Assembly: GCA_044347745.1 (NCBI GenBank)
Contig: JBIKUD010000010.1
Span: 11,741-75,740, forward strand
DNA: 64,000 bases
Direction of reading: 5' to 3'
Origin: Bdellovibrionota bacterium
GTDB lineage: Bacteria > Bdellovibrionota_C > UBA2361 > JAFLCA01
The notes under the pieces are model-generated. The model made no database searches and had not been told where the DNA came from. It saw only the letters and a program-made list of their open reading frames with translations. The first letter of the stretch is position 1, and each line of letters begins with the position of its first letter. The position numbers and the translations under genes are program-made. Positions 14,405 to 54,722 of the stretch are shown one piece after another.

Positions 14405-14498
14405 AGTGGTTTCACAAGAGAGTATTCAGCCCAAATGCTGTAAAAAAAGCCAAGATTTCAGTAGCTTGACAGGATAATGGGGTACTACCCCAGCGGGC

Positions 14499-16176: not shown

Positions 16177-16341
16177 ATGAGCCCAGATTCAATCCGCGCG
16201 TCCCAAGCAATTACTGCTTCGCAGCCAAAACCGGAACCAAAGCCCAAAGAAGAAGAGAGACAGGTAAGTGCACCCGAAACTAAAGCCGTGCAAGAAGAGG
16301 CAAGAAACGCACAGGGCGTTTCAACAATTGCAGAAGCATAG
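16177..16341 (+). CDS. small hydrophilic Lys/Glu/Pro-rich protein (54 aa), hypothetical
   Basis: Below the ORF-track size cutoff. Perfect AAGGAG ribosome-binding site 6 nt before the ATG. An intrinsic terminator follows at once. The antisense listed ORF 16137-16373 is probably spurious. Confidence 0.45.
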   Translation: MSPDSIRASQAITASQPKPEPKPKEEERQVSAPETKAVQEEARNAQGVSTIAEA

Positions 16342-16347
16342 AGAGTA

Positions 16348-16382
16348 ACACTTTGGGGCCTCTTGGGCCCCAAAGTGTTTTA
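16348..16382 (+). terminator. rho-independent terminator (cactttggggcc-tcttg-ggccccaaagtg + TTTTAT)
   Basis: Perfect 12 bp GC-rich stem followed by a T-tract, directly after the small ORF. Confidence 0.6.
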
Positions 16383-16397
16383 TGCACCCGAAGCTAA

Positions 16398-16434
16398 GGG
16401 CCTCGTCTGAACGCATTTTGCCGACGAACAGAAA
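16398..16434. repeat. copy 1 of a 35 bp direct repeat (GCCTCGTCTGAACGCATTTTG-N4-CGAACAGAAA)
   Basis: Matches 18105-18140 at 31 of 35 positions. Each copy lies about 250 bp upstream of a gene start (16677 and 18378). Confidence 0.65.
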
Positions 16435-16676
16435 CTTTAAAGAGCTGAGTTTTGCTCAAAACTTTGCCAAAACTGACTTTTTCACGGCGAACAAATGCCT
16501 TAATTGATTACCTCCGCTCGTGGATCTTATTGAGGCTTTGCGCTAAACTCCGACGTCTCCAAATCAGTTGGGGATTGAACTAAAACTTGCGTTTGATTTG
16601 CCTGAAGTTTGCCCATGCGATCTTTGAGCAGACCGAATGCATGACAAAAGAACAGGGTTTAGCGTAGCTCGCTACA

Positions 16677-18059
16677 ATGCAAGATCAACCGCAACCACCA
16701 ACAGCAAACGACAACCAGCCCAACGCGGCGGAAACTTCGCGTAACCCAAACACCTCAACCACTCGCACCAATAGCTTAGCTCCCCGCTTAAAAACAAATC
16801 CGCTCGATTTGTGGAACCAACTTAGCCAAGATTTGCGTCAGTCCATTCAGACTGAGGTAGCTGAAGTAACTGTTGGATTTCTCGCCAAAGATGTGTGCGT
16901 GTATTATGAAGGGTTTGGACTTCTCATTCCTCACATTGAGTCACAACAGCGAGTCCGGATTCAAGAGAACCAGGTCTTTGTGCAGACCGAGACCTTTCGC
17001 ACTTTACGATTTGAAAAGTGCGGAGAACTAGTTGCCTATCACCGTGAAAAATTTGGGTCTATTGTTGAATTAAAAGATCTTATCGAACCCACACTGAAAC
17101 GCCTGCACGCCTCCCCTTTTAGCGATAGAGACCTGAGGCAAGTGCTCCGTGGGCTGTTTCAGGCGCTTCGTATAGAAGTGGTAAGCCACGGAGCAAGTAG
17201 GTTGCTGCCGCGCCTTGGCGATTTTTTTGCGCTACATAATAGACAAGGCACCTCGGTTATCGACTGGTTTGCCGGTGCAGATATCTTTATTCGTTCCGCC
17301 TACCGTCAGACACTTTTTGTAGAGCCAACCCGCTTATCGGCTAGACCAATTTTACAGTCTTCCTGGGAACTGCTTGAAGCCGCCTACGGCCCACCTGCCT
17401 GCACCCTCGAGCTTGACCTGCTTGAACAGCTTACTGAACTGGGATACGACGCCGAGGCGCTACAAACAGGCCTCGCCGATAAGGACCGAAAGATTCCGGT
17501 TGGCGTCTATTTGCGCCTCGAAGCCCCTCAAGCGCTTATTTATTGTACCGATGGCCTGCGTCGCTTAGCTGCTCAAGCAGGTGCTATTCGCTCTGGCTCT
17601 GAGCTGGTGTTCCAACTTGCACTCGCAAACCAGGACCATGATGGCGTAGTTCCTGATTGGCCGTTACGCGCATTAGCTTTGGGGTGGATTCTTATTCAAA
17701 CCACCAAATCAAAGTCCATTAAAGTTGGCGCCGCTATTGCCTGCGACCAACCACTTATTCCAAATGGCGATTCCGAACTTCACTGTGTGCTTGCCACCCA
17801 ATTTGCGGCTGTAAAAACAGAACAGCTAAGCGCCGATGGCGCGTTTTCGTACGTTAATTTAATCGGGATTTGCCGCAACGAAGCCGAAGTTGCAGCCCTC
17901 CATTCTGTAGATCATCTGTTTAAACTTCTTGAGTATAAAGAGCTGGATCAGTGCACAAAACCAAACCGCTCATCTATTGTGGCTCGAACATATTTTGAAC
18001 TGCCTGTAAAAGACTGCGGACAAAACGGGGCCTGTACAGCTCCCAAATCTGAGCCCTAA
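16677..18059 (+). CDS. hypothetical protein (460 aa) with a Pro/Gln/Asn/Thr-rich N-terminus
   Basis: Clear ORF with no confident family. The C-terminal half is vaguely SUFU-like, which I do not treat as more than speculation. Flanked by the 35 bp repeats. Confidence 0.55.
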   Translation: MQDQPQPPTANDNQPNAAETSRNPNTSTTRTNSLAPRLKTNPLDLWNQLSQDLRQSIQTEVAEVTVGFLAKDVCVYYEGFGLLIPHIESQQRVRIQENQVFVQTETFRTLRFEKCGELVAYHREKFGSIVELKDLIEPTLKRLHASPFSDRDLRQVLRGLFQALRIEVVSHGASRLLPRLGDFFALHNRQGTSVIDWFAGADIFIRSAYRQTLFVEPTRLSARPILQSSWELLEAAYGPPACTLELDLLEQLTELGYDAEALQTGLADKDRKIPVGVYLRLEAPQALIYCTDGLRRLAAQAGAIRSGSELVFQLALANQDHDGVVPDWPLRALALGWILIQTTKSKSIKVGAAIACDQPLIPNGDSELHCVLATQFAAVKTEQLSADGAFSYVNLIGICRNEAEVAALHSVDHLFKLLEYKELDQCTKPNRSSIVARTYFELPVKDCGQNGACTAPKSEP

Positions 18060-20283: not shown

Positions 20284-21315
20284 ATGAAGGCCGTATTTTT
20301 TGAACAGCATGGTGAAATTGATGTGCTTAAATACGCCGATTTACCCGAACCAACGCTAAACGTGGGCGAAGTCTTAGTAAAAGTAAAAGCAGTAGCGCTT
20401 AACCATCTCGATATTTGGGTGCGTCGTGGCTGGAAAGGCCTCAATCTTGAAATGCCCCACATTACCGGAAGTGATATTGCGGGTGAAATTGTCAAAGCAA
20501 ACACCCCCCATTCACAATGGTCGCCTGGTACCCCAGTGATGATTAACCCTGGCGTAATTACGGCAGAAGATGAATGGACCCGCTCTGGCGAAGCCAGTGT
20601 CAGCCCGCATTACAAAATTTTGGGCGAACAGCTTCGCGGCGGCATGGCCGAATATGTGTGTGTACCAGCAGCAAACGTGTTCAAAATTCCTGAAGGCATA
20701 AAATATGAGGAAGCCTGCGCCCCATTGCTGGTGGGAACCACCGTATGGCGCATGCTCTTTAAACAAGCAAATTTGCGCGCGGGGCACAGTGTGTTGGTGG
20801 TAGGAGCTGGCGGTGGGGTGAACTCGCTGGCCATTCAAATATGTAAGGCCGCCGGAGCCACGGTGTATGCCTTAGCTGGCACCAAAGAAAAAGCAAAAAA
20901 AGCAGCCGAGCTTGGAGCCACTGAAGTAATTAATTATGCCGAGAAAACAAACTGGGCCGCTGAGTTATTGAAACTAACCAAAGGCCGAGGAGTAGATATC
21001 GTTATTGATAACGTCGGCGCCCGAACCATGGGACAAAGCACCCGCGCCGTAGCGCGTGGCGGCACCATTGTAACGGTAGGCGCAACCAGCGGCTATGAAC
21101 TGGCCCTTGATGCCCGACTCTTTTTCACCAAACAAATTAAGCTGGTAGGCTCCACCATGGGTAACGGCCAAGACTTTATAAACGCCCTTGAATTTATGTT
21201 TCGTAACGGCATTAAGCCCGTTATTGATCAAATTGCCCCGCTTAAGGATGGCATTAAAATGCTTAAACATCTTGAAGAGGGTAAACAGTTTGGCAAAATT
21301 GTGTTGGTGCCCTAA
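20284..21315 (+). CDS. zinc-type alcohol dehydrogenase / quinone oxidoreductase (MDR superfamily)
   Basis: MKAVFFEQHGEIDVLKYADLPEP..GEVLVKVKAVALNHLD and a VVGAGGGVNSLAIQ Rossmann motif. AAGGAG ribosome-binding site. Confidence 0.85.
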   Translation: MKAVFFEQHGEIDVLKYADLPEPTLNVGEVLVKVKAVALNHLDIWVRRGWKGLNLEMPHITGSDIAGEIVKANTPHSQWSPGTPVMINPGVITAEDEWTRSGEASVSPHYKILGEQLRGGMAEYVCVPAANVFKIPEGIKYEEACAPLLVGTTVWRMLFKQANLRAGHSVLVVGAGGGVNSLAIQICKAAGATVYALAGTKEKAKKAAELGATEVINYAEKTNWAAELLKLTKGRGVDIVIDNVGARTMGQSTRAVARGGTIVTVGATSGYELALDARLFFTKQIKLVGSTMGNGQDFINALEFMFRNGIKPVIDQIAPLKDGIKMLKHLEEGKQFGKIVLVP

Positions 21316-21434
21316 TTAGGCGGGCAGCCAATTTTTTGATCGGGGCCAGGTGCTGATAAAACGCAGGCCGGGTCAAAGTCAGAGTGCGGGTTGACGGAGT
21401 GCGGTTCAAAAGAGAAGTAAGGCAGTTCTAGCCC

Positions 21435-23087
21435 CTACTTTTTCAACGACGATTGGATTTGTACAATACGTTCCCTATAACGACTTGCTTCTTCATCAAA
21501 AGGGTATTGGGGCCGGAGTTCTTGAAATATTGATTTCAGTTCGGGCAACACATCGAGCCCAGCGCCTGGCAGCAGCTCTAGTTCAAGCCGACGCCGCAGC
21601 ACGTCTTCGATTGTTTCGGCTTGCTCCGCTTGTAGCGCAAATTCAATTTCGCCGCGAATACTAAAAGGGCCGATTGGTTTTAGGAGTTCGGGCTTATCGA
21701 GAAAATATTTACAGAGCCCCCCGTAACGCGACAGCACGGAGTCAATAAGCGCATCGGACAATTTATGTGCGTGAGCGGCATTTCTAAACTTTTCCGCAAT
21801 TTCTTGGTTTTGAGTGGCCCCCGGAAAAGGCCGTTTTTCTACGCCTGCTATTGTTTTTGAAACTGAAGTTAATTCGCATACCTGCTGTAAGCCTTGCTGC
21901 ACGGTGCTCATGGCGGTGGTGAACTTACCTCCGAGCAACGATAGCACTCCTCCGGAAAATGACCAAACGGGTTTACGTGAAATATCGGATGTTGAGTGGG
22001 CTCGGGAATCGGAAACAAGTGTGCGTAATCCGGCAAAGCCGTAGTACAAACTTTCTCGATTGAGGCCCGCTGCCGGAATATCTTTTTGTAACCTGGCTAA
22101 AAGTTCTTCAACTTCTTGCTGGCTTGGTTGTGGATCCCAGCTTGGCTCGGCCACGGCAGCTTCGGTGGTTCCCACCATGGTGCCTCCGGGATGCGGCCAC
22201 ACAAAATAAAATCGCCCTCTCCCGCCTAAGGGCAAAAACAGTGCTGGCCCATGCCAGGGCCGCGCAAACAAAAGATGCGCGCCGCGACTGTAGGTAACGT
22301 GCTGGTTTAACTTGGCTCCGGGCAATCGGCCTAATTGTGCAACCCACGGACCAGAACAATTAACCACAATTCCGGCAGCTATTTCATACTTAGAATTTGT
22401 AAGAGTATCAGTAAATCCAACTACTACCCTGCGCCCTGTTTGATGGTGTAAAGAATCAACGCGCGCATAGTTTAAGGTCAGTGCTCCTTCCTGCCGCGCC
22501 GCGATAATATTTTCTTGCACAAGTCGAGTGTCGCGCATGATGCCATCAAAATAGACTAAGCCGCTGTGCGGCTGCTGGCTGGCCCCCTTAAATAACTCCG
22601 TATTGAGCTCGGCTGAAGTTGCAGTGTGAGATTTTCTATTTGGTTGGCGCACAAAATAATCGTAAAGCCAAAGCCCGATTCGATACTTGGTTCGCTGAAA
22701 CAAGGAATTGCTAAATTGTGGTAACAAAAATGGGTACGGTTTTACAAGGTGCGGAGCAGTTTCGAAAAGTGCTTCGCGGCAACGAATGCCTTCAAAAACT
22801 TGTGAGAAATCAAAAAGTTCTAAGTACCGAAGTCCGCCATGCGCCATTTTTGAGCTACGGCTGGATGTGGCCGAGGCGTAATCTTGAGCTTCCAATAAGA
22901 CGGTGCGAAATCCATTCAGTGCAGCTAGACGGGCAAACGCTGCGCCGTGAATACCTCCACCAACTACGAGGATGTCGCAGGCCGGACTACGCTGAAGCGA
23001 GCGAATCACTTTTTCTCGCTCTACCCCCAAAAAGCCAAAAGGGGCTGAGGCGTCCTGCCCGTCTAGATTGGAATATTCACTGTACAA
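21435..23087 (-). CDS. glpD: FAD-dependent glycerol-3-phosphate dehydrogenase
   Basis: DILVVGGGIHGAAFARLAALNG..LLEAQDYASATSSRSSKMAHGGLRYLE is typical of GlpD/GlpA. Confidence 0.85.
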   Translation of the reverse strand: MYSEYSNLDGQDASAPFGFLGVEREKVIRSLQRSPACDILVVGGGIHGAAFARLAALNGFRTVLLEAQDYASATSSRSSKMAHGGLRYLELFDFSQVFEGIRCREALFETAPHLVKPYPFLLPQFSNSLFQRTKYRIGLWLYDYFVRQPNRKSHTATSAELNTELFKGASQQPHSGLVYFDGIMRDTRLVQENIIAARQEGALTLNYARVDSLHHQTGRRVVVGFTDTLTNSKYEIAAGIVVNCSGPWVAQLGRLPGAKLNQHVTYSRGAHLLFARPWHGPALFLPLGGRGRFYFVWPHPGGTMVGTTEAAVAEPSWDPQPSQQEVEELLARLQKDIPAAGLNRESLYYGFAGLRTLVSDSRAHSTSDISRKPVWSFSGGVLSLLGGKFTTAMSTVQQGLQQVCELTSVSKTIAGVEKRPFPGATQNQEIAEKFRNAAHAHKLSDALIDSVLSRYGGLCKYFLDKPELLKPIGPFSIRGEIEFALQAEQAETIEDVLRRRLELELLPGAGLDVLPELKSIFQELRPQYPFDEEASRYRERIVQIQSSLKK

Positions 23088-32521: not shown

Positions 32522-34453
32522 ATGCGCACAGTAAAGGGAAAACTAAAAGACGAAAGCGGCAATATGGTGCTTTCCCTTGGAGCACTTAGCCTGATGCTGC
32601 TTTTTGCCATGTTTGCGGTCAACACCGCCTACTACTACTCATACCAACAAAAACTAAACTCAATTGCCAACTCAATTGCCGCACACGCAGGAAATTATTT
32701 GCCAAATCCGTCTTTGTCTGCACAAGCAGCAGTTAATGCATTCGAGCTTTTAAAAAATGATTTTGTTACGGGAGAACCACATTTTGGAACGGCTTTGGAA
32801 TTACAAGTGTCGTTTGATTACTACGAGGTTGGGGCTGGAAATGTGGTTACTCTTTCAAGAACTACGCTGGCAACGCCAGAAAGTTCGTGGCCGGTGGCAC
32901 TTCCTATAAAGTCGCTCACCGTCAAAGTTTCGGGCCGATATACGGCAAATTTACTAAACTTTAACTCGACCCTTGGCGCAGCATTGCCGTCAGTCCAAGT
33001 AATTGGGCAGGCAAGCACGCAGCTTATTCCCACTGATGTTGTTTTGGTAATCGAAAATTCTAATTCAATAATCTCTCCGCTCGCCGATGAAAGTGCCTCT
33101 CTTTCAAAAGCTTTTAGTCTTTGGAAGGACGATTTTCCCGGACGAGGTGTGAGTGAATCAGAAGTCCCGTACGGGTCCACTCTTGAAGTATCCCAAAGTA
33201 AAGCCCGGCTCCGCGAACGCCAGTGTTTTGGCAAAACAGCTTATGAAATAAAGCGCGCGGCTTTACAGGCATTTGACTATTTAAGTTCCGTAGGCACCTA
33301 TCGCGTTGGAGTAATTCACACAACCGATTTAATTGGCGAAGTGCCAACGGCTACTATCAATATTACGCCAGATTCCTATGGGCGTGTGTATCAGCGCAGA
33401 AGATTTTCATCGTACCAAGCGGGAGCCGCCTCTGACACACCAAGTACCTACAATGAAGTTATGTATAACCCTGGGGCTAATTCTTCGTATGGCACATTTG
33501 AGTATCCTGAAACACGCTGTGCGGCGCTTACAGCTGAAACTGCCTTTCGGGTTCCCGCTCATCCGTTTGCCTCATATGCAACGCTGAATAACTTTGCAAG
33601 TAACTCTTTAAAAACGAATCTTGCCGGAGAACTGTCATGCGATGGTGAAGTGGACACCGACAATTGCCCCAGTGCAGGACACCTCACGTATGACGCATCC
33701 GGAATTCTGATTCCACGAGAACTTATTTGGATTAAAAATTCTGGCTTTGATTTTGAGACTGGTTTGCCAAATCCCTTGTACGATTACACCAAACTTGAGT
33801 TTCCTATTTTACGCGCCATAGACATGCTGCGAACCGCACCTGCTCGTGCCGACAATTTACCCGTGCGGCGCCAAATAGTGCTGGTTTTTACAGATGGTTG
33901 GGAAACGCCTTACCTTTATGAAACGGGTGTGAATCTTGACGGTGCAACTCAGAATATGACCTTTAGGCGTGCTCCAGCCATAGCAGAGGGCTCGGCCGAA
34001 TTTTCTGAAAAAGTATACAGCCTCGATTACGCTGACTCTGCTTCAAATTTTGATTTTTATTGCGCCACCCACGCGGACAACCTCATTCAACAAAGCACTC
34101 AACCAGATGAAAGCTCTGGATTTACCCCAGAATCAAACAATTTAGGCATTAAACTTGGGGTGCTGGTGCACGGCGCAAAACAAACTGGGTACGGCGCCAC
34201 CCTTAAAGACCCAAGCTTTCGATTGTTGGCACTTCGCGGTCATGGCAACAAAGATAAAAATGACCTTGGCACTTTTCGTAGCGAGTGCAACACCCGTTGG
34301 ACCGAAGGGCGAGGGAGATTTTTTATGGAAATGACCAGCCCAGTGCTGGGAGAGGATGCCATGAGTGCAAGCCAAATGTACTACGAACAAATTACCCCGC
34401 AGGCACTCAGAAGCTTTTTTGATTCGGAGCTTATTCAGACCAATGCAGATTAG
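32522..34453 (+). CDS. TadG-like Flp-pilus assembly / pseudopilin protein (643 aa)
   Basis: N-terminus ESGNMVLSLGALSLMLLFAMFAVNTAYYY is the Tad (TadE/G-like) N-terminal domain. It has a VIENSNSI possible MIDAS-like segment. Its stop overlaps the next gene's start. Confidence 0.6.
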   Translation: MRTVKGKLKDESGNMVLSLGALSLMLLFAMFAVNTAYYYSYQQKLNSIANSIAAHAGNYLPNPSLSAQAAVNAFELLKNDFVTGEPHFGTALELQVSFDYYEVGAGNVVTLSRTTLATPESSWPVALPIKSLTVKVSGRYTANLLNFNSTLGAALPSVQVIGQASTQLIPTDVVLVIENSNSIISPLADESASLSKAFSLWKDDFPGRGVSESEVPYGSTLEVSQSKARLRERQCFGKTAYEIKRAALQAFDYLSSVGTYRVGVIHTTDLIGEVPTATINITPDSYGRVYQRRRFSSYQAGAASDTPSTYNEVMYNPGANSSYGTFEYPETRCAALTAETAFRVPAHPFASYATLNNFASNSLKTNLAGELSCDGEVDTDNCPSAGHLTYDASGILIPRELIWIKNSGFDFETGLPNPLYDYTKLEFPILRAIDMLRTAPARADNLPVRRQIVLVFTDGWETPYLYETGVNLDGATQNMTFRRAPAIAEGSAEFSEKVYSLDYADSASNFDFYCATHADNLIQQSTQPDESSGFTPESNNLGIKLGVLVHGAKQTGYGATLKDPSFRLLALRGHGNKDKNDLGTFRSECNTRWTEGRGRFFMEMTSPVLGEDAMSASQMYYEQITPQALRSFFDSELIQTNAD

Positions 34454-37400
34454 AGGCAACACCAAACGGCACACAACGCGCTGCTCTGAAAGGGGCGTCG
34501 CTTTTGTTGAGCTTGCGCTGACGCTTCCTATTCTTGTCTCAGTGGTGTTAGCCGTAGGATACCTATACAGCTATGTCAGAACCTATCAAATTGTAAAGTC
34601 GGCGGCACTTGCTGCAGCCACCTACGGCGCCAGTGGAGAGCTAAGCTCAGTAAGCAATTCAGGCACAAGTTTTCTTGAGTGGACTCATCTAAATGGTGGA
34701 ACTCCGCCCTTTCGGCCAGTTGCAATTCGGCGCCACGAACAATGCCGGGGGCTTTCGGCTGAAGCAGCAGAAACCTGCATCCAAACCGAAATAACCGCCG
34801 AACGGTACTACGCCCAAGTGTGGAGCGACTATGCAAGTTCTGTTTCCTCCCCGCTGGCAGAAGCCAGCCCCCTGCCCTTTAAGCTGTATGAGAAATCAAG
34901 CGCAACTCCCGGATACATGCTTACGACGGTGCTTCCGGTAATTGGAATCGAAAGGGCTTGTTATGAACCATATAACGAAACCGCCAGCACTATTACGGGC
35001 ACATCTCGCTTTTATAACGCCTCTATTGGTGCCGCCAACTGCACCCATGTAAAGCCCATGTATTGGCAAAGTCCAGTTCAGGCAGACTTTGATGGTGACC
35101 GGCGCGAAGACATCGTGGTGTTTAGACCCCAAGGCACGAGTACCACGTGGGGCGCAAAAGCAGACAAGTCAGAGGTAGATTTTGTCGTTTTTTACTCAGG
35201 TTCAGGATATAGCCAGGTTGGAGGCAGAGGCTATTTTAACTTGGCTACTTTGCCAGGAAGCGCCACCGCAGGTGTCACTCCAAATGATATTCCCATAGTC
35301 GCTGACTACGATCGTGACGGCCTTGCTGACTATGGTGTTTTCGATCCCCGAACGGGTGACTACCGTATTGCGTTTTCGCTCTCAAATTACTTAGTAATTG
35401 GCAGCGGCAATATGGGCGTAAGCGATCCCTCTGGGCAGCAAGGACTTATTGCCGTTCCAGGACATTACACAAGCACTACTAATCTTCAGCTCCTCGTGGT
35501 TCGAACTGCCTCAACTACTGCGGCCGGACGATATGACATGTTTATTTCGAACGTCATTAATCCAACCTTCGAGCAGCTCATGGATGATGACCTCACGTAC
35601 TCCTTACCAGCGGGACATGCCGTTTCTGGTAACGAAGTAAGTTCAGCGAATCTTTACAAAGTCAAACCAGCCCCAGGCACTGTCTCAGTGCCAGCTTTTG
35701 CCGACTATGATGATGATGGAATAACCGAACTGGGGTGGCTTAGCTGGTATGGGGGCAACATGGCTCAGCAAATTGCTGGGCGTGTGATTGGGCAGCGCTC
35801 AGCAACATTAGCTAAATTCTTTGAGACTGACAGCAACCCTGATACTACTCCCATGAACACTCGCATGAATCCATACGATATGGATTTTGATAGCGCCGGA
35901 AACTTACTCTACACAGATCCAATTGATGGCAGACTTTGGAAACTTGATGCTGATGCACTGGGAGGAATTTCGACACCAGATACAAGTTCCTCGCACATGA
36001 TAATGCCCACTGCTGATTATCAGGCAGCCCGTACGCTTGTCCCGAATCCGGAAGCCAAATTTGCACCGGAGAATGTCTATGATGTCACTCGTGATAATCG
36101 CGCGCTGAATCCTGCTGATACAGATGCTCCAGTTACAGCCAGCGAGAGGCAACTAAGAACGCCAAGAAAATTTTTTGTCGCAACGGATTACGACAAAGCA
36201 TTATATATCGCAGATCACCGCAACATGCGGATTCTGAGGCTAGAAAGCGGAGAGTCAGGAATAGATTCAACGTCTACTAGCTCTGTGATTCTGGGAAGCA
36301 GCTCATGTACGAGCGGAGGCTGTTCTGACCTTGTTGATGACAAGTCTCCCAGCCTCTATTCAATTTGGGGTGATGCCAATGGTCAATATACTATCAACCC
36401 CTCAGCAATCGAACTTGTTCCCGACACTGAGAATAAGAATCGATATTTTGTGGCGTTTTCCTCAGGCAATGCTGTGTACCTTATAACTCACGAAAACGAG
36501 GAGGGAGGGCCGCTGGGTACTGACTCTGATCGTATCTGGAAAGTTGCGGGTAAACACAGCACTGCACCAAGCTACACGGCGGGCGATACAAACGCAAAAT
36601 ACACTGACGACCTTATTGCTGACCAGGCACGCAATTCAGCCCTCTGCCCGATTATTGATCTTAAGTATCACAGCGGTATCGGCGGCGGGGTGCTGCTCAT
36701 GGCAGCATCCTGCAGCTTGCCTCGCATGCATGGAGAAACTGGCTTAACTTTTCAATCGGTCGGGGGAATTTATACCCTAACTCCCGCATTCAACTCGGAC
36801 AAAGTCTATCGCTTCCATGATCCATTAGCTGAGGATCTGGACAACTCAATTGCGCTAAGCGTCGGCACCATGTGGGTGTATCCGTGCACCCAAGGTGTGT
36901 GCGCGGGGCCACAAGCCTCTGGCGCCGGAAATTACCAGCGCAAAATAAACGTGATGGCCAATGCCAATGCAATTGATTTAGTCAATCCTGTTGATATGGA
37001 AGTTGGGCCTCGCGGAGAGGTGTATTTTATTGACCAATGGAATGAAGATACGATTTACGATACCGAAAGATTTCCTGAAAGCCCTAATGTTCAAGACCGC
37101 CTCCATCGAAATGGAGTCTGGATTTGGGATGCAGCCACGAATACAAACTCAATTCTGCCATTTACCAATAACTTTTTTTATTCAGATGGGCTGCTTCCCG
37201 TCTGGGGCCCCGACTGGTACTCGCCTACTCGCCTTGGAGATACCGCAAGCATTCAGTGGAATATTCTTGCCCATAAAGCGCCGCTTAAGAATGTTCCGGT
37301 TCCAGCGACTGCGGGAATTACAATCTCCGGTAATACAGTATACACCTCAGTTCCATTCGTACGTCCGCCATCCGACTACTCCGAAAGTCATCCACTTTAC

Positions 37401-39314
37401 ACAGAACCTAAGCAACTCGGTATGATTTACTCGATTGAATTGGATAGAGACGGCGATGGAACTCCAGACTCTGCCGATACGGATCTCGATGGTGATGGGG
37501 TGTTAAATACCTTAGACACCAGCCCACGTAGCATGCATTGCCCAGAAATTTACGGTACCACCAATTCTGGAGCTTGCAGGGCCCAAGAGGAACTCGGCAT
37601 ACCAAGACAAACATTTTTTAAAATTACAGGAGCCGATATCGCCTTTGATGCAAGCGAAGCTGGGGCTCCTACGGGCAGAAATTATGGCGAATTTTTATTC
37701 GTAAACTCAGTGGCAGAATGTGGCCCAGAAGCAGATTGCGCATCGGAGTCGCTCGGGTTTACTGCCGCGCAGGTCAAACCAGAAGTATGGGCAACTTTAT
37801 TTAACTGGGGTGATGACTTTGATTTTGGTGGAACAGATGCATGCACTTCAGATAATTCTGTTTCAACGACGAGCCCTTATTATGGTTGCATCGAAACAAG
37901 TAATGGACCTATCGCCATGCCTCAGCCTCTACACGCTATGGTTGGATGGGATGTACCGATTCTTACGTATACATTTGAGTCGTTCCCAGGCGGAGGCCAT
38001 CTAAACTCTACAACTCCGGGCACAGAGCGGCGTCCAGATTCAAACCTCTTTAAATTTCCATTTATTCTGTCGTCGCTAAGACCAAAAGAAAACGGAATTA
38101 AAAGCCCGAAGCGTGTACCTCTCTATGACGTAAAAGACCCGCGCATCACAAAATCAGGGCTCCTCTGCCGCGACTATGAAGGCGAGATCTATACGACGGG
38201 TCCAGGCCCTGCAGCTGCGGCGCCGTTCAAATTAAATTTTGACAATTATTTGGGCAATTATTTTTACTCAGGCTTTGACCCACATCTTGATAGCACCCTT
38301 GATAATGATTTTGCGAATTACGCTGTAGATTGCGCCTACGACCAAACCGCAAGTTTCCCCGGCACCGATGCGCGTAAGCAAGCGGTTGAAGGAATTGTGC
38401 TGCAGCTTGACCATGATGATACTGACGGCAAAGAAGGCGGCGTAAGTGGACAGTGGCCATACCAATGGGCTGCCGGCATCCCCGCTGACCCCGAGAATAT
38501 TAATCATTTCCTGTTTATTGACCATGATGGAAATGGCGTCAGGAATCCAAGCTATCTGATTCCCCCTCAAGCCTCTGGCGACTCAGCTTTTAGCGGCGCA
38601 AGTATGGCCAATCCATTTATGGTGGTGGGCTTAGGACTACAAAATTCTGATGACAAATACGATTCACGGACGATTAACTACATCGATAAGCTACGAGAGC
38701 CTTTTAATTCTGTGAATCTTTGGAACAATCTTGGATATGGAAGTGATTATTTGATGACAGGGCCATTTGCGAGAATCAATGCCGTCACCCAAGATTCAAT
38801 TAATTTACTATTCGATAAGGGCTGGGCCGGTACCAATCTACGCGACAACGCCCTATTTGTAGCTCTTGATTTTGAGCCCTTTATTCCCAAAGATTTTGAA
38901 ATTGGAAGCAGACAAGACGCAGGGGCTGGCCTCTTTACAAACTACACAAAAAGCACCCGGTTTCGTAGGAATGCCGATGACGATATTCCATCGGCCTTGG
39001 TGGCTGCCCGGAATGTGCTTAAAATTGCCTACGGTGTAGGAGACGCGGAGTTTACCTCCGATGAGGCAGATTTCGCCTCTGATGAGGACATTAAAGCTTA
39101 CATCAATTTATCTAAGGACGGAGCGGCGTGCACTGGTGATCTCAATTCAAGCGCTGCGCTAAACTGCGACTCGGTTGAGGTGAGATATAAATCGAGTTAT
39201 CTCGGATTTGATATAGTAGTTTCTAGTAAAGTACCTCTTAATCAGGGGTACCTTAGAAATTACCAAGAAGTGTGTGATCCAAATGGCGGGCCGGAGGGTT
39301 TTGATTGTAACTAA
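34443..39314 (+). CDS. giant (about 1620 aa) TadE-N-terminal protein with FG-GAP-like, NHL-like and Ca-binding (thrombospondin-type-3-like) repeats; candidate pilus-associated adhesin
   Basis: From the ATG at 34443 (overlapping the upstream stop) the N-terminus reads ERGVAFVELALTLPILVSVVLAVGYL, a canonical TadE motif. FG-GAP-like motifs: DFDGDRREDIVVF, ADYDRDGLADYGVFDP, ADYDDDGITELGW. NHL-like motifs: GNLLYTDPIDGRLWKLD, YIADHRNMRILRLE, VYFIDQWNEDTIYD. D-x-D-G runs DRDGDGTPDSADTDLDGDGVLNTLD. The listed start at 34365 would overlap the previous gene in another frame. Confidence 0.65.
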   Translation: MQIRGNTKRHTTRCSERGVAFVELALTLPILVSVVLAVGYLYSYVRTYQIVKSAALAAATYGASGELSSVSNSGTSFLEWTHLNGGTPPFRPVAIRRHEQCRGLSAEAAETCIQTEITAERYYAQVWSDYASSVSSPLAEASPLPFKLYEKSSATPGYMLTTVLPVIGIERACYEPYNETASTITGTSRFYNASIGAANCTHVKPMYWQSPVQADFDGDRREDIVVFRPQGTSTTWGAKADKSEVDFVVFYSGSGYSQVGGRGYFNLATLPGSATAGVTPNDIPIVADYDRDGLADYGVFDPRTGDYRIAFSLSNYLVIGSGNMGVSDPSGQQGLIAVPGHYTSTTNLQLLVVRTASTTAAGRYDMFISNVINPTFEQLMDDDLTYSLPAGHAVSGNEVSSANLYKVKPAPGTVSVPAFADYDDDGITELGWLSWYGGNMAQQIAGRVIGQRSATLAKFFETDSNPDTTPMNTRMNPYDMDFDSAGNLLYTDPIDGRLWKLDADALGGISTPDTSSSHMIMPTADYQAARTLVPNPEAKFAPENVYDVTRDNRALNPADTDAPVTASERQLRTPRKFFVATDYDKALYIADHRNMRILRLESGESGIDSTSTSSVILGSSSCTSGGCSDLVDDKSPSLYSIWGDANGQYTINPSAIELVPDTENKNRYFVAFSSGNAVYLITHENEEGGPLGTDSDRIWKVAGKHSTAPSYTAGDTNAKYTDDLIADQARNSALCPIIDLKYHSGIGGGVLLMAASCSLPRMHGETGLTFQSVGGIYTLTPAFNSDKVYRFHDPLAEDLDNSIALSVGTMWVYPCTQGVCAGPQASGAGNYQRKINVMANANAIDLVNPVDMEVGPRGEVYFIDQWNEDTIYDTERFPESPNVQDRLHRNGVWIWDAATNTNSILPFTNNFFYSDGLLPVWGPDWYSPTRLGDTASIQWNILAHKAPLKNVPVPATAGITISGNTVYTSVPFVRPPSDYSESHPLYTEPKQLGMIYSIELDRDGDGTPDSADTDLDGDGVLNTLDTSPRSMHCPEIYGTTNSGACRAQEELGIPRQTFFKITGADIAFDASEAGAPTGRNYGEFLFVNSVAECGPEADCASESLGFTAAQVKPEVWATLFNWGDDFDFGGTDACTSDNSVSTTSPYYGCIETSNGPIAMPQPLHAMVGWDVPILTYTFESFPGGGHLNSTTPGTERRPDSNLFKFPFILSSLRPKENGIKSPKRVPLYDVKDPRITKSGLLCRDYEGEIYTTGPGPAAAAPFKLNFDNYLGNYFYSGFDPHLDSTLDNDFANYAVDCAYDQTASFPGTDARKQAVEGIVLQLDHDDTDGKEGGVSGQWPYQWAAGIPADPENINHFLFIDHDGNGVRNPSYLIPPQASGDSAFSGASMANPFMVVGLGLQNSDDKYDSRTINYIDKLREPFNSVNLWNNLGYGSDYLMTGPFARINAVTQDSINLLFDKGWAGTNLRDNALFVALDFEPFIPKDFEIGSRQDAGAGLFTNYTKSTRFRRNADDDIPSALVAARNVLKIAYGVGDAEFTSDEADFASDEDIKAYINLSKDGAACTGDLNSSAALNCDSVEVRYKSSYLGFDIVVSSKVPLNQGYLRNYQEVCDPNGGPEGFDCN

Positions 39315-46843: not shown

Positions 46844-48682
46844 TTATTGCTCAAAATCGCGCACAAACAGCTCCTGGCGTAGGTACACAAATCGCGGCGT
46901 AATTGGGGGCAAATTAGCTGCGTTATTAAAGGCAGTTTCATAACTCCAAATTCGATTTGGCGCTGTGTAGTAATTTCCACCGTACACCCAAGCGCCATTT
47001 TGATGACGCGGACGATTTAAACTCACAAAAGATCCTCGATAGGTAAAGTTTCGGTTCGTCCAGTTCTCATGAAATCGGGGATAGTTTTCGAGTCCACCGT
47101 TATAAGCGCCGCCCTGTCCCCCGGCACCTTCAACACCGCCAGTAGTATCTGTTCCTGCAAGCACCGCGGCATTTACCGTGGAATCGGAAGCTACTCTACT
47201 GGCAAGTGCCAGCGCGGAAGTTCCGTTCCAACTGTTCGTATCTGCCCAGGCGGGAGAAAGCACATTAAAAGCGTCTGCCAAAAAAGCTGAAGGCAGCTTA
47301 TTTACGGTGTTGTAGTTGCCCATAACATAAAAAGCTTGGTTGCTTACCCAAGTTACACCGCGAATGGCCGGTGCACCGCCCACGTTTGAATGAAGGCGTT
47401 GAGAGTTTCGAACACGAACTCCATAGTTATTGGCAGCGCTATTTGACTGAGGTCCTTCAACTGCCAAGAAAATAACAAGCCCTCCCTGAGTAGAGTCTGA
47501 CAATAACTTTCCGCTTCCAAACCAATTACTCCGATGGAGGCAATTAAAGAGCGCAACCACATCTACATCAAGCATGCGAATTAGTTTTGCCTCGCGGTTG
47601 TTATAAAAGCTATTGGTATTTGCTATTGAACGACCGGAAATACTCCCCGAACATTGGACCATATTGGTGTTAATGGTGCTGGTGGCACTTGCATTCAGAG
47701 AATTATCCACATTTCGAACTTCAACCGCCGTAACTGCATTGGTGGTATCGGGAGTATTAGCGTTGGTTAACTTGAGAACTAAACGTAAATCAGCATTATC
47801 CCAATAGACCTGTCCCGGCGTTGGCTCCAAAACCTCTGGAGCAGGAACTTCAACCGGCGTAACCCCCATTTGAATCATCCCATTAAATGGAGTGAGCTGA
47901 TTTGGCTGAATTTGAACTCGAGTGGTGCAGGTTGGAACAAGCGTAGTTGCGACAGTGGGATTAAAAACCCGAACTAAATTTGAGTTGCAAAGGTTCTGAT
48001 TCTTTCGGCCTCGATATAAGTTACCAGCAGTAGACACCTGCCCCTGCATTATAAGTCCCGGATTTGGATTATCGGTATTCAGATACAAATCGCCATTGGT
48101 GTGCACCGGACCATTAAGCGTCATTGTTGGACCTGGCAATATTTCCAGATCTTTATTGTAAAATGCAGCAAATTGAAAAAGTGGCACCAATCGGCTTTTA
48201 AACTTTAACTCCAATTGTGCCGTCGTTCGATCTTCAATGGTTTGAGCGTTCGAAACCGCCGTATACCGGTATTCTTGCGCATTTAAATTTTGGTAAAGCT
48301 CACCTGGGGGAATAGTTATGTTTTGTGGATTTCCGGCTTCTTCCCTGACGTAGGTGACATTCGATTGATTGTTAAACGTAAAGGTTTGGCATGCAAAGTC
48401 ATTACTGCCGTTGTTACTTCCTGTGCAAGGGTTTGGTTCGGTCGGCCCAGGCCCAGTGGGCACATTATACCCGACAAATGTTTGGCGGATCGCTTCAGCG
48501 CGCACGTTAAGTCCAGCTTCCGCTGCATAAAAACCTTGCACACTCTCTTTGGACATTCGACTTGTGCCTATTTCCATGGACGAGGTGAATGTGTAGGCGC
48601 TGTATAATGCCAAAAGCACTGACATCATGAGCAGCACCGTGATGAGCACAAACCCATGTTCGTTACATTTTTTTGTGCACAT
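46844..48682 (-). CDS. PilX-like type IVa pilus minor pilin / assembly protein (612 aa)
   Basis: N-terminus HGFVLITVLLMMSVLLALYSAYTFTS matches the PilX N-terminal domain. The rest is a large Asn/Thr/Gly-rich extracellular region. It is the last gene of the minor-pilin operon. Confidence 0.6.
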   Translation of the reverse strand: MCTKKCNEHGFVLITVLLMMSVLLALYSAYTFTSSMEIGTSRMSKESVQGFYAAEAGLNVRAEAIRQTFVGYNVPTGPGPTEPNPCTGSNNGSNDFACQTFTFNNQSNVTYVREEAGNPQNITIPPGELYQNLNAQEYRYTAVSNAQTIEDRTTAQLELKFKSRLVPLFQFAAFYNKDLEILPGPTMTLNGPVHTNGDLYLNTDNPNPGLIMQGQVSTAGNLYRGRKNQNLCNSNLVRVFNPTVATTLVPTCTTRVQIQPNQLTPFNGMIQMGVTPVEVPAPEVLEPTPGQVYWDNADLRLVLKLTNANTPDTTNAVTAVEVRNVDNSLNASATSTINTNMVQCSGSISGRSIANTNSFYNNREAKLIRMLDVDVVALFNCLHRSNWFGSGKLLSDSTQGGLVIFLAVEGPQSNSAANNYGVRVRNSQRLHSNVGGAPAIRGVTWVSNQAFYVMGNYNTVNKLPSAFLADAFNVLSPAWADTNSWNGTSALALASRVASDSTVNAAVLAGTDTTGGVEGAGGQGGAYNGGLENYPRFHENWTNRNFTYRGSFVSLNRPRHQNGAWVYGGNYYTAPNRIWSYETAFNNAANLPPITPRFVYLRQELFVRDFEQ

Positions 48683-48692
48683 ATTCGCCTCT

Positions 48693-49586
48693 TTAATTCG
48701 ACAAAATATTTCTGGGAAAAAACCGCGCCGAAACAGTTCGACTCACTGGATCGGTTGCCACCGTGGCACTGCCTGTTAACGAAACTTCAATTGATGCAAT
48801 ATCTGTCCAATCATCAGTGGCAGCAAAGGCAGTAAGTACGGTCGCGTCCTGCATGGCTATTTGTATATCTAAATTAGTAAGCTCGTTGGCTACCGCAATT
48901 GGATTTGTGGTGTCTTGGTCGGTAATAATCTGTAGCACTCCATTCACCAGTCGATATCGCCACTCCTCAAGAAGGTAAATTGAAGATGCACCAACGGGAT
49001 AGGTATTAGCCCAAGTGCCTGCGCTTCGGACTATCTGAAAATCGTTGCTATTATTCTGCTCGCCAACAAAATCAAAAAACTCACCAATTCGACTAACCCG
49101 ATTATATATATACCCTTTAACGGAACCGCCGGTATTGGTGCGATAGGCGCTCCAGTTATTAAGGGCTGATAAATTAGAAGCAGTGTCACAGCCTGGCAGC
49201 GTCAGAGAATTGTCGGCTACCACCATGTTGGTAGTGCCACTCGCCGCTGTTATTTGCACACACACGTTAAAAACTTCATCTATCAGGTTACGCCGCACTA
49301 TGAGTTCATCAAAATTACCCGCCGTGCCGTCGATTAATTCTACGGCCGGAAACGTAGACGGTAAATTTTCTCCAGCTTCACGAATATCAATGCCCATAAT
49401 ATCAAGGGCACTGCGTAAGTTTTGATTTATGCGGGTGCGCACTAAGTCATAACGAAACAATCCACGGTTTGACATGGTCGCGCTTAAGGTCAGCGCCAGC
49501 ATAAGCATTCCCAGAAAGCTTACGACTAAAAGCTCAGTTAGGGTAAACCCTTTATCTGAGCCGAGTGAAGACAGTTTCAGTTTCAA
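48693..49586 (-). CDS. PilW-like minor pilin (prepilin-type N-terminal cleavage/methylation domain)
   Basis: The G|FTLTELLVVSFLGMLML class-III signal motif follows a 13 aa leader. Confidence 0.65.
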   Translation of the reverse strand: MKLKLSSLGSDKGFTLTELLVVSFLGMLMLALTLSATMSNRGLFRYDLVRTRINQNLRSALDIMGIDIREAGENLPSTFPAVELIDGTAGNFDELIVRRNLIDEVFNVCVQITAASGTTNMVVADNSLTLPGCDTASNLSALNNWSAYRTNTGGSVKGYIYNRVSRIGEFFDFVGEQNNSNDFQIVRSAGTWANTYPVGASSIYLLEEWRYRLVNGVLQIITDQDTTNPIAVANELTNLDIQIAMQDATVLTAFAATDDWTDIASIEVSLTGSATVATDPVSRTVSARFFPRNILSN

Positions 49587-49941
49587 AAACCATTCCTCCT
49601 AAATGGGACACTTGAATACGCAGATGTCGATTGGCCGCAGAGGCGCAAAAAGCCACCGTCACACAATAACTCGTTTGCACGGTAAAATTTTTATTGTCGA
49701 TAACAATCGTTTGCGAAGTGCTGCCCGAGGTAGGCAGCGCTCCTGGGTCTTGAAGTCTTAGTTCGTCAAGCGCCCGCTGGGCAGCGGCAACAGCTAAGGT
49801 GCGAATCTCTGCTTGGGTGCTGCGCTGCAAATGTCCCACATACGTACTTGCCATGGTGGCGGAGACAGTTAAAAAGAGCAGCAAAGACACCATTACCTCA
49901 AGTAAGGTAAATCCCCGCATATTTGTTTGTCGCATCTGCAT
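49552..49941 (-). CDS. PilV/GspI-like minor pilin
   Basis: MRG|FTLLEVMVSLLLFL prepilin motif. 129 aa. Overlaps the next gene by 35 nt. Confidence 0.65.
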   Translation of the reverse strand: MQMRQTNMRGFTLLEVMVSLLLFLTVSATMASTYVGHLQRSTQAEIRTLAVAAAQRALDELRLQDPGALPTSGSTSQTIVIDNKNFTVQTSYCVTVAFCASAANRHLRIQVSHLGGMVFETETVFTRLR

Positions 49942-49946
49942 AGGAG

Positions 49947-50390
49947 TTAACTTTGAGAAAGTTGCACACTGCCACCCAGAAACACTTCAATCGTGCGGCT
50001 TTGTGAGTGAATATCGTTTACTACTACTTGAGTGTTCGAGTCAGATAGTCCACGTGACGTAAAACAAACTACCCAGTTGGTGGCGCCTAGACTGGCTCCG
50101 GCTGGAAGATTTAGTGACAGAGTCGTATCGGTCACCGGCGCAGGATCCGCGCAGTTTACCCCACTTTGGGTCACAATTTGTGTGCTCGAGGTTGGCACAA
50201 TAAAATAGGCTGATGTGGAAGAGATGGCCCGAGCTCTGGCTTGCTTAAATAATCCCAGCAGCGATGCGGCTGCGTTTTCAGATGGATTGCTTAAGGCGTT
50301 TAAATTCATAATGGCAATTCCCGCCATTATTCCCGAAAGCGCCATCACGACTATCAGCTCGAAAATAGTAAATCCGCGTTCATTTCGCAT
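49947..50390 (-). CDS. FimT/FimU/GspH-like minor pilin
   Basis: MRNERG|FTIFELIVVMALSGIMAGIAI prepilin motif. I chose the internal ATG (6 aa leader) over the listed TTG at 50465 (31 aa leader). Confidence 0.6.
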   Translation of the reverse strand: MRNERGFTIFELIVVMALSGIMAGIAIMNLNALSNPSENAAASLLGLFKQARARAISSTSAYFIVPTSSTQIVTQSGVNCADPAPVTDTTLSLNLPAGASLGATNWVVCFTSRGLSDSNTQVVVNDIHSQSRTIEVFLGGSVQLSQS

Positions 50391-50722
50391 GAACAATTTT
50401 TTAACCTCTTGTTCCACAACCTGTAAGCTCCAAGGCCGGCTCAATTCGGCCAAAAGACCTTTCAACCACCTGCAAAGGAATGCAAGTGCCTCTCCAGTCC
50501 TGACAAGCAGCCCGTTCCAATAAATTCAACATGTTAGCCTGCTTCGCATTTAGCCGCTTAGGTATACGTCGACCACTTTGCGCAATTATTGCAGGGCAAA
50601 ACGCATCTGGACGCTCGGGTTTCACATCTTTAGGTTAGGAGTAAGCACTTGAAGTATTCAGAAATTTTGCAAATCAGCCGATTACCCAATGTAACGGATC
50701 ATTTAACGGAGATCCGTAACCC

Positions 50723-53120: not shown

Positions 53121-54722
53121 GTGAAATTTATTCACAGCCTTTTCGTCTTTTTACTGCTGAGCGGCTGTTATGTCCTGCTTTTGTTCCCCGCCTCCCCATT
53201 TCCGGTCAGCGGTTATATCGGGCGCAGCGGCGATGAGCTACAGGCAGCTTGGAACATGTGGTGGGTAAGCTTTGCACTGGAACAAGGCCTAAGCCCTTTT
53301 AAGACCCTATTTCTTCATGCGCCCCTTGGAATTGAATTTTGGGGGCAACCGCTAGCAGCGCCTCATGGCATATTTTACTTCCTCACTAAATCGATGCTGA
53401 GTTTGCCACAGGCCTACAACACCCTTGTCTACCTTGGATTCGCGTTAACGGGGCTTTTCGCATATTGGCTGGGGCGCGACCTAGGGTTAAAGCCCGTCTT
53501 CGCCTTTTTGGCAGCTTATTTTACAAGCTTTTCGAACTTTCACTTTCAACATCTGCATGGCCACTTAGAGTTTATCTCTATGCAATGGCTGTTGCTCTAC
53601 ATGGTTTTTCTGCATCGACTTTTCACCCAGCCCACCTTGTCTGTCGCCGTCGTTGCAGCCCTCGCGCTTACCCTAGTTACCATCTCGAATTCCTACTACG
53701 CAGTTAGCGCAGTGCTTGTTTCGGTCTGCTTTAGTCTAACTTTCTTGAGAAAATTACCTGAACTTTTCACTCGTCAGCCACTCGCCTGGGTGTTATTCGG
53801 AACACTCGCTGTAGGACTCTGCGGAACCTACGCCCTTAGTTTTTTTGAGTATACGAGAGATAACCCGCTTTTGCCCGGGCACTCAGTCGCTCTTGGCTCG
53901 CTACACCCCAGTAGCATTTTTGTGCCGGGACAATTTTGGCGCTGGGGGCAAATAACTCAAAGTGTTTGGAGCCTGCAACCTGGCTACACTTTTGAGCACA
54001 GCGTCAGCCTCGGGTTCGCACTGGTTGGGCTTATTTCCTACGCGGCTTTGTCGCGACAAATTGAATCACCAGCCAAGAAAGCCTTAGGTTGGTATTTTTT
54101 ATTTTCACTTGGACTCGCGTTAGGACCAAAATTATTTATACAGGGCGAATGGCGGGACTTTCCTTTACCCTTTGATATCCTGGATTTCATCCTTCCCTTT
54201 TCCTCGCTTTCCGGTGTTCCTGTGCGCTTGTTTGCGGGGGCCGGCATTGCTGGTGCTTTTTTGGCTGCCTTTGGTGCTCAGCAGCTTTATTTTAAAAAGC
54301 GCTACCTTGTTTTAAGCATCTTAATGCTGCTGGCATGTATTGAGCAGACTCCAAAAGCTCCAGAAATTAGCCACTGGAAGGCTCCCGCGTATGCGGAGAT
54401 ACTAAAGTCCCTGCCAATTAAACATACCCAAATAGTGGCCGACTTAGTCTCAAAAGGTGGAGATCAACTCGCAGCACAAACAGTCTATAAAAAGCCTATG
54501 TTATTTGGGTACACCGCTCGTATCAGTAAACAAATTGATGCTCAGAATAGAACTTTTAGAAAACTGCTTGGTCGTGAATATCTAACTGCGCTCTGTGAGA
54601 TTGTGCCGCTAGCCTATATTGCTGCTCCAAACTCGCGCTTTCGCGCTTCCATTCGAAGCGAGCAAATAGTGTATGAGGACGCCGAAAATTATATTTTCAA
54701 GCCTTGTGTGGACGCAGATTAA
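53121..54722 (+). CDS. polytopic integral membrane protein (GT-C-like / hypothetical)
   Basis: At least ten hydrophobic helices, aromatic-rich. No soluble domain recognised. Confidence 0.55.
   Translation: MKFIHSLFVFLLLSGCYVLLLFPASPFPVSGYIGRSGDELQAAWNMWWVSFALEQGLSPFKTLFLHAPLGIEFWGQPLAAPHGIFYFLTKSMLSLPQAYNTLVYLGFALTGLFAYWLGRDLGLKPVFAFLAAYFTSFSNFHFQHLHGHLEFISMQWLLLYMVFLHRLFTQPTLSVAVVAALALTLVTISNSYYAVSAVLVSVCFSLTFLRKLPELFTRQPLAWVLFGTLAVGLCGTYALSFFEYTRDNPLLPGHSVALGSLHPSSIFVPGQFWRWGQITQSVWSLQPGYTFEHSVSLGFALVGLISYAALSRQIESPAKKALGWYFLFSLGLALGPKLFIQGEWRDFPLPFDILDFILPFSSLSGVPVRLFAGAGIAGAFLAAFGAQQLYFKKRYLVLSILMLLACIEQTPKAPEISHWKAPAYAEILKSLPIKHTQIVADLVSKGGDQLAAQTVYKKPMLFGYTARISKQIDAQNRTFRKLLGREYLTALCEIVPLAYIAAPNSRFRASIRSEQIVYEDAENYIFKPCVDAD

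Follow-up and report, generated by a model that had tools for sequence, protein, structure and literature searches.

A TadE-type prepilin signal on a giant modular protein of uncultured Bdellovibrionota: a candidate two-gene tip module of a Tad pilus

Can a minor pilin of a Tad pilus carry an ectodomain of about 1,560 residues? This question is raised by two overlapping genes, A and B, in a 64,000-nucleotide stretch of DNA (the window; positions 11,741 to 75,740 of contig JBIKUD010000010.1, assembly GCA_044347745.1) from an uncultured member of the Bdellovibrionota (Oligoflexia/Bdellovibrionales), a host with dispersed tad genes. Protein B opens with a TadE-type signal and continues into a very large modular ectodomain, and gene A encodes its smaller, minor-pilin-like partner. 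We consider it somewhat probable (roughly 0.55) that A and B together encode the tip module of a Tad (type IVc) pilus, with A as the apical subunit and B displaying a giant binding domain. The two genes and their parts are as follows.

32522-34453, plus strand: gene A, intact open reading frame (ORF) of 643 aa; TadG/CpaL-like, minor-pilin-like protein, conserved partner of B
32522-32656, plus strand: N-terminus of A; basic leader (residues 1-13) ending in Gly13, followed by a hydrophobic helix; +5 is Ser, not Glu
33035-33067, plus strand: strand of A with a D/E-x-S-x-S motif resembling a MIDAS, a metal-ion-dependent adhesion site; residues 172-182, DVVLVIENSNS, columns invariant in the alignment
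34443-34453, plus strand: overlap of A and B, 11 nt (ATGcagatTAG; ATG of B at 34443, stop TAG of A at 34451-34453)
34443-39314, plus strand: gene B, intact ORF of 1,623 aa; protein with TadE-type signal and giant ectodomain
34443-34496, plus strand: leader peptide of B, residues 1-18, MQIRGNTKRHTTRCSERG; predicted prepilin-peptidase site after Gly18
34497-34631, plus strand: alpha-1 helix of B, residues 19-63, hydrophobic, starting with VAFVELALTLPILV; the Pfam TadE match spans residues 18-59
34632-35057, plus strand: conserved Cys-containing region of B, residues 64-205; C101/C112 and C173/C200 invariant
35058-35852, plus strand: FG-GAP-like repeats of B, residues 206-470; D-x-D-x-D-G calcium loops at 215-223, 288-296 and 421-429
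35853-37160, plus strand: NHL-type beta-propeller of B, residues 471-906 (matches at about 476-906)
37443-37532, plus strand: TSP3-like acidic calcium-binding stretch of B, residues 1001-1030, LDRDGDGTPDSADTDLDGDGVLN; Pfam TSP_3 at 17.9 bits, below the cut-off
37533-39311, plus strand: family-specific C-terminal region of B, residues 1031-1623 (about 590 aa), with the acidic loops LQLDHDDTD and FIDHDGNG and mostly conserved Cys pairs

The N-terminus of B, MQIRGNTKRHTTRCSERG/VAFVELALTLPILVSVVLAVGYLY (the slash marks the predicted cleavage site), is a class III (prepilin-type) signal, composed of a basic leader, Gly18 at position -1 and Glu23 at position +5; the context of the site reads ...CSERG/VAFVELALTLPILV..., and hydrophobicity windows over the whole protein detected this N-terminal hydrophobic segment only. 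The original prediction had taken the start of B for a TadE pseudopilin motif, and a profile search confirmed this, if narrowly: Pfam TadE (PF07811) scores 23.2 bits (E 7.6e-5) over residues 18-59, where the gathering cut-off is 22.9. All eight close homologues of B match the same profile at E<=0.1 (best 1.4e-6), and in the wider family 9 of the 17 members do so at E<=0.01. Throughout these 17 sequences position -1 is Gly or Ala, and position +5 is Glu in ten. AlphaFold2 (AF2) predicts a helix over residues 17-63, with a predicted local distance difference test score (pLDDT) of ~70 for residues 21-40. In the model of residues 1-480, which was based on an alignment of eight sequences and reached a pLDDT of 38.9, the alpha-1 helix alone is usable; residues 64-205, modelled with low confidence, are possibly the globular part of the pilin. 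A word-based homology search with the alignment of the N-terminal 205 aa gave zero matches.

Behind this N-terminus the original prediction had placed FG-GAP-like and NHL-like repeats and calcium-binding loops, a domain set which we recovered, with the FG-GAP match of the window copy itself staying below threshold (14.8 bits against a Pfam cut-off of 22.1). Among the B homologues FG-GAP is matched in 6 of 17 (best E 5.4e-5) and FG-GAP_3 in 4 of 17, and tblastn matched many generic FG-GAP proteins over residues ~164-450. D-x-D-x-D-G loops start at residues 215, 288, 421, 1001, 1012 and 1360, and the Asp and Gly columns of the three loops in the FG-GAP region are invariant in the 17-member alignment. 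Of the modules expected from structure prediction, the NHL propeller was obtained, both with AF2 and with Foldseek; the FG-GAP repeats were modelled by AF2 at low confidence (the model of pLDDT 38.9 described above).

B contains an NHL propeller, as both sequence comparison and structure prediction attest. A family profile searched against the PDB matched the six NHL repeats of a bacterial teneurin-like protein (9ifo_A, 2e-16), the sensor domain of PknD (1rwi, 1.3e-6) and the Pizza designer propellers. AF2 modelled residues 471-1623 with confidence in the propeller alone, where the pLDDT is mostly 70-91 at about 560-815, and Foldseek with this confident part returned the NHL domains of teneurin-2 (5e-8), NHLRC2 and TRIM71. 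Five blades are modelled with confidence and the propeller is likely to have six, the sixth being predicted at low confidence. A teneurin-like toxin architecture was considered for B and rejected, as the NHL repeats alone match and a YD shell is missing.

Residues ~906-1623 were modelled with low confidence, and the model is uninformative there. Residues 1001-1030, the TSP3-like stretch, are the most conserved segment in the B family. A hidden Markov model (HMM) search with the C-terminal region against 1.84 billion representatives yielded just 22 matches; the clear full-length ones are all proteins of 1,565-1,829 aa that are matched at their own C-terminus, the others being short fragments and two marginal, apparently unrelated sequences. 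After the leader, B contains 22 Cys residues, which lie as eleven pairs of near neighbours; most of these pairs are conserved or invariant. This pattern would fit folding in an oxidising extracytoplasmic compartment and points to export of the protein.

The N-terminus of A reads ...KDESG/NMVLSLGALSLMLLFAMFAVN...; in all eight aligned sequences position -1 is Gly and position +5 is not Glu, and hydrophobic windows were found at the N-terminus only. Gly at -1 without Glu at +5 is typical of apical subunits of the GspK/TadG/CpaL type (PMC12918778). Six homologues of A were found (31-58% identity), one of which (P0016) is named 'Tad domain-containing protein' by NCBI. The original prediction had called A TadG-like and coupled to B. 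The tight coupling stands, and the label is weakly backed, since Pfam Tad (PF13400) matches 3 of 8 homologues, with a best E of 0.0067, and does not match the A of the window. Two motifs of A are invariant, DVVLVI(E/D)NSNS and T457-D458-G459 (33890-33898), and they suggest, as a lead only, a vWA domain that bears a MIDAS and is interrupted by a long insert, like that of CpaL (PMC12607857). Neither Pfam VWA nor a PDB profile search gave a vWA match in A, and tblastn against plasmids lent no support; hhalign of A with the integrin alpha-M I-domain aligned 14 columns, covering the MIDAS-like strand alone, at a probability of 1.5%.

The two genes are also linked at the level of the locus. Their coordinates and the overlap of stop and start at 34443-34453 were found on reading the ORFs exactly as originally predicted. 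The mechanical ORF of B opens at GTG 34365, and we take ATG 34443 as the true start because Met1 is invariant across 17 homologues and the motif that follows aligns in all of them. An 11-nt overlap recurs in two further loci (L001 and L004/L005), and the genes overlap by 4 nt in L002 and are separated by 2 nt in L006. Judged from the sequence, the overlap indicates probable translational coupling. A and B form a plus-strand island flanked by minus-strand housekeeping genes, with purD, purH, a PP2C phosphatase, a SPOR protein and a gene of the CCA/poly(A) polymerase family on one side and an AmiC-like amidase, mutS and rpsA on the other. No third pilin-like ORF was found in the intergenic DNA flanking the pair, and a scan of the locus for promoters and terminators gave nothing above the shuffled expectation. 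We also considered that B might be a pseudogene or an artefact, an interrupted ORF having been the concern of the original prediction; B is intact, collinear with 16 full-length homologues and present as an identical partial copy in a Joint Genome Institute (JGI) sample, and this explanation was rejected.

The B family comprises 17 full-length members of 1,565-1,829 aa, which are collinear throughout; ten of these were newly retrieved, and all ten open with the same TadE-like N-terminus. The family is rare: 1.84 billion protein clusters contain about 18 representatives of it. Its members belong exclusively to uncultured Bdellovibrionota, and it occurs in 3 of 185,579 species genomes, two metagenome-assembled genomes (MAGs) labelled 'uncultured Bdellovibrionales' and 'Oligoflexia bacterium SSF8'. 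A metagenome scan with the 17-member alignment returned generic FG-GAP proteins only and no family members, the search pattern having fallen on the FG-GAP loop.

A and B occur together in all eight loci examined, down to ~35% identity. They are adjacent in the window and in L001, L002, L004/L005, L006 and L011; in L003 a single gene lies between them, and in L010 their orientation is divergent. Five genomes have the pair at the same site, beside the gene for the CCA enzyme. The most divergent locus (L003, 35% identity; 8573-17837), from an uncultured Bdellovibrionales MAG, has its A and B homologues within a run of pilin-related genes, in the order 49-aa pilin-like ORF, CpaB-like gene (TIGR03177 3.3e-12; SAF 6e-6), B homologue, 278-aa TadE-like gene and A homologue, followed by the contig end. 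The 49-aa ORF is Flp-sized with a non-canonical site, KG/SIELIV, where Glu is at +3. L003 is the sole direct genomic link of A and B to Tad assembly genes.

Several neighbours in the other loci may be recorded here. In L010 (4748-16648), from a more distant genome, a 506-aa multi-pass membrane protein is encoded between the divergent genes for A (707 aa) and B (1,696 aa), and the block is flanked by secreted proteins of 349 aa and 510 aa. Directly downstream of B lie additional genes specific to their lineages, one of 1,188 aa with a signal-peptide-like N-terminus in L001 (15111-18677) and one of 381 aa in L004 (15129-16274), both without a Pfam match and without an equivalent in the window. 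L002 contains two neighbouring flagellin-like genes (20941-22567; Flagellin_N ... Flagellin_C) that bear FG-GAP_3 repeats, an arrangement which suggests either an FG-GAP insertion in a flagellin or a gene that is split.

For the window the original prediction had stated that no TadA/B/C, CpaB/C or prepilin-peptidase gene is present. This is correct and extends to 10 kb beyond either end; a cluster of Tad pilin genes at the start of the window had, however, been overlooked. Its features, read from translations and motifs and with the same gene calls in public contigs, are listed below together with a further pilin cluster.

642-5282, plus strand: second Tad pilin cluster, TadE/TadE/TadG-like genes and Flp
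642-1607, plus strand: TadE-like gene, 321 aa, G/XXXXE signal, Gly/Pro/Thr-rich tail
1728-2513, plus strand: TadE-like gene, ~240-260 aa, G/XXXXE signal; Pfam TadE at 20.5 bits
2532-5048, plus strand: TadG-like gene, 838 aa, without Glu at +5
5058-5282, plus strand: Flp-type pilin, 74 aa, canonical G/ASLTEY site
46844-50465, minus strand: type IVa minor-pilin-like cluster with PilX_N, N_methyl and GspH matches

By its sequence the cluster at 642-5282 shows that the organism probably uses Tad-type pilins, and it may supply the fibre and the third tip subunit of the system proposed here. It resembles a KilLMN-plus-Flp 'Tip' cluster. We considered A and B as paralogues of the genes at 642-5048 and rejected this, similarity in hhalign being confined to the N-terminal helices. 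Directly after the Flp gene, at 5419-5910 on the minus strand, lies a gene of the 23S rRNA intervening-sequence protein family (PF05635). In the type IVa cluster the encoded proteins are one of 612 aa with a PilX_N N-terminus, uncommonly large for a PilX, one of 297 aa resembling N-methyl pilins and one of 172 aa resembling GspH/FimU. Elsewhere in the window, a minus-strand ORF of 1,253 aa (54719-58480) combines a weak match to a hydrazine-synthase-alpha-like beta-propeller with a cytochrome-c-like motif and stands beside a 904-aa spermidine-synthase-like/ankyrin fusion (58763-61477).

How would A and B act at a pilus tip? In the mechanism we propose, both proteins would enter the inner membrane via their prepilin-type N-termini, and a prepilin peptidase, either of the TadV/CpaA type or PilD as in Bdellovibrio, would cut after Gly18 of B and Gly13 of A. 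The original prediction had regarded the lack of a tadV-type peptidase in the genome as a refutation, a test that is invalid since the tad loci of B. bacteriovorus are without TadV and PilD processes Flp1 (bioRxiv 10.64898/2026.07.08.737194). The alpha-1 helices of A and B would then form a bundle, perhaps joined by a third TadE/F-like subunit from another locus, and the bundle would prime and cap the Flp fibre, the third subunit and the fibre being supplied from elsewhere, plausibly from the cluster at 642-5282. We assign the apical, GspK/CpaL-like position to A because it is without Glu at +5, and place B beneath it because B keeps this residue. The ectodomain of B (~1,560 residues with FG-GAP-like, NHL, TSP3-like and orphan C-terminal parts), stabilised by disulfides and calcium, would bind the surface of prey or of a substrate.

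The closest precedent is the Kil (Tad) pilus of Myxococcus, for which four paralogous dispersed KilL/M/N clusters of TadE/F/G-like proteins have been described (Herrou et al. 2025, PMC12075869). KilL/M/N are predicted to form disulfide-rich 'Tip' heterotrimers in which the TadG-like KilN exposes a variable distal domain, and structural analogues of these tips have been reported in Bdellovibrio (PMC12075869). A and B share with KilLMN the encoding of TadE/F/G-type minor pilins in small gene groups that lie apart from the machinery and occur as several paralogues in a genome, as well as G/XXXXE signals, disulfide-rich distal domains and a predatory lineage. They differ in that the locus has two pilin-like genes and not three (L003 has three), that the giant module is carried by the Glu+5-bearing, TadE-like B and not by a TadG-like protein such as KilN, and that the cargo of B consists of recognisable FG-GAP, NHL and TSP3-like domains; sequence similarity to KilLMN is not detectable beyond the N-terminus. 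Thus, with two genes and the cargo on a TadE-like subunit, A and B are outside the strict definition of a Kil Tip.

CpaL/TadG of Caulobacter, a minor-pilin-like vWA protein of ~600 residues, has been modelled at the Tad tip as a GspK-like subunit (PMC12607857, PMC12918778). A resembles it in its size of ~600 residues, its pilin-like N-terminus with Gly at -1 and its MIDAS-like DxSxS...TDG motif parted by a long insert, so that size and motif would match the CpaL plan (PMC12607857); unlike for CpaL, a vWA fold was not confirmed for A by Pfam, PDB or hhalign searches. CpaL is without a partner comparable to B, which is far larger (1,623 aa) than CpaL or a typical minor pilin. In B. bacteriovorus, where the tad genes are likewise dispersed, a lone tadG contributes to prolonged prey attachment (bioRxiv 10.64898/2026.07.08.737194).

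The parallel to PilY1/PilC drawn in the original prediction is reasonable as a functional analogy. B and PilY1/PilC are both large candidate tip adhesins with a beta-propeller, D-x-D-x-D-G calcium sites and a minor-pilin partner. The analogy does not extend to kinship. PilY1 carries a Sec signal, attaches by beta-strand complementation and does not belong to the pilins; the propeller found in it is the PilY1/PilC kind, and no Pfam PilY1 match was found in B. B is not a member of the PilY1 family because its propeller is of the NHL type and it has a pilin-type N-terminus of its own. B also shares its design with modular type IV pilins such as PilB (vWA) and PilC (lectin) of S. sanguinis, in which a pilin N-terminal module is extended by a binding module that the filament displays. 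Such pilins are widespread, the most extreme one in a survey that took in N-methyl (IPR012902) pilins having 860 residues (Raynaud et al. 2021, PMC8179133), whereas B is of the TadE type, about twice as large and composed of at least four modules. Its best domain matches, the NHL propellers of teneurin and PknD (~476-906) and the FG-GAP repeats of integrin alpha (~206-470), reflect likeness at the domain level only, as neither a YD shell nor a kinase or integrin architecture is present in B. Bd0109, from the hit locus of Bdellovibrio, was considered as a relative and rejected, since it is a YD-repeat protein of 65 kDa that has a Sec signal (PMC3818213).

Several observations weigh against a tip module. 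The TadE score of B is marginal and the motif short and hydrophobic, Glu at +5 is lost in 7 of 17 family members, and the pilin fold past alpha-1 is unconfirmed, given the low pLDDT obtained with only eight sequences. B and its family are also far above the 150-200 aa of TadE/TadF minor pilins. Published tips carry the large distal module on a TadG-like, not a TadE-like, subunit, the vWA domain of A was not confirmed by the searches described above, and genes for Tad assembly adjoin the pair in only one of eight loci and were not found in the window or its 10-kb surroundings. A folded, disulfide-bonded ectodomain of this size is without precedent among pilins, where the survey maximum is 860 aa (PMC8179133), and its passage through a Tad secretin is unproven.

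In an alternative view B, and perhaps A, would stay anchored in the inner membrane by the TadE-like helix, whether cleaved or not, and would serve as a periplasmic or envelope scaffold, a sensor or a cell-wall-associated factor. TadG itself was first regarded as membrane-anchored in the early Aggregatibacter literature. A single N-terminal hydrophobic segment in B, the size of the ectodomain with its unproven secretin passage, the missing Tad machinery nearby and the fixed position that the pair keeps in five genomes, with envelope and housekeeping genes around it (SPOR protein, amidase, mutS), are all compatible with such an anchor. Yet a mere anchor would not need the conserved G(-1)/E(+5) prepilin motif, disulfide-rich FG-GAP, NHL and TSP3 modules are characteristic of binding proteins exposed at the surface, and in L003 the pair adjoins pilin-like and CpaB-like genes. 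In addition, models and genetics now put CpaL/TadG and KilN at the tip (PMC12607857, PMC12075869). We regard the membrane anchor as rather unlikely.

Two further explanations retain the pilin nature of A and B and change the fibre. A and B might cap a short pseudopilus like that of a type II secretion system (T2SS), which would push the ectodomain of B to the surface or release it, with no long retractile fibre being involved. The minor-pilin-like N-termini of both proteins, the capping of T2SS pseudopili by GspK-type subunits without Glu5 (PMC12918778) and the distance of the Flp gene from A and B in the window agree with this idea, which we nevertheless judge quite improbable, the N-terminus of B being of the TadE and not the N-methyl or Gsp type, a canonical Flp pilin being encoded in the same window and an Flp-sized pilin-like ORF lying near the L003 homologue. 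Incorporation into a type IVa pilus after processing by PilD seems more improbable still. It could draw on the type IVa minor-pilin cluster at 46844-50465, and PilD processes both PilA and Flp1 in B. bacteriovorus (10.64898/2026.07.08.737194); A and B, however, are without the G-F-T-L-I-E N-methyl motif and score as TadE/Tad, and the CpaB-like gene in the context of L003 is Tad-specific.

Among these explanations the Tad tip module remains the one we favour. The sequence features, domains, conservation and linkage of A and B are shown by the analysis; cleavage, tip assembly, secretin passage and adhesion are inferred. A stronger version of the tip module is put forward more tentatively, as a possibility short of an even chance: B would be a genuine subunit of the type IVc pilus, larger than any pilin-like protein seen so far, that merges the roles of minor pilin and PilY1, and its propeller and calcium-binding cargo of ~1,560 residues would cross the Tad secretin to the fibre tip as a device by which an uncultured, predatory Bdellovibrionota lineage recognises prey or surfaces. 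In this version the cargo may lie inside a split pilin fold, by analogy with GspK and CpaL.

We found no description in the literature of a TadE-type N-terminus on FG-GAP or NHL cargo. The original prediction had claimed novelty for a Tad pseudopilin N-terminus on so large a protein, and this needs to be narrowed. The concept of Tad tip modules is already known, tip-located, dispersed and modular Tad minor pilins having been published (PMC12075869, PMC12607857, PMC12918778; PMC8179133), and the architecture of B is new in its size, its domain set and the attachment of the cargo to a TadE-type subunit.

Tad pili were long viewed as bare Flp fibres, and tip complexes with variable distal domains have been recognised only in 2025. 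If our proposal is true, the B family pushes the idea of the tip complex to an extreme, with one TadE-type subunit carrying FG-GAP, NHL and TSP3-like modules, and it poses the mechanistic question of how a folded, disulfide-bonded ectodomain of ~170 kDa is primed at the inner membrane and passes the secretin. As all members of the family come from uncultured lineages, immediate experimental access is limited. The family would provide a concrete, testable candidate for the recognition of prey or surfaces by Bdellovibrio-like organisms.

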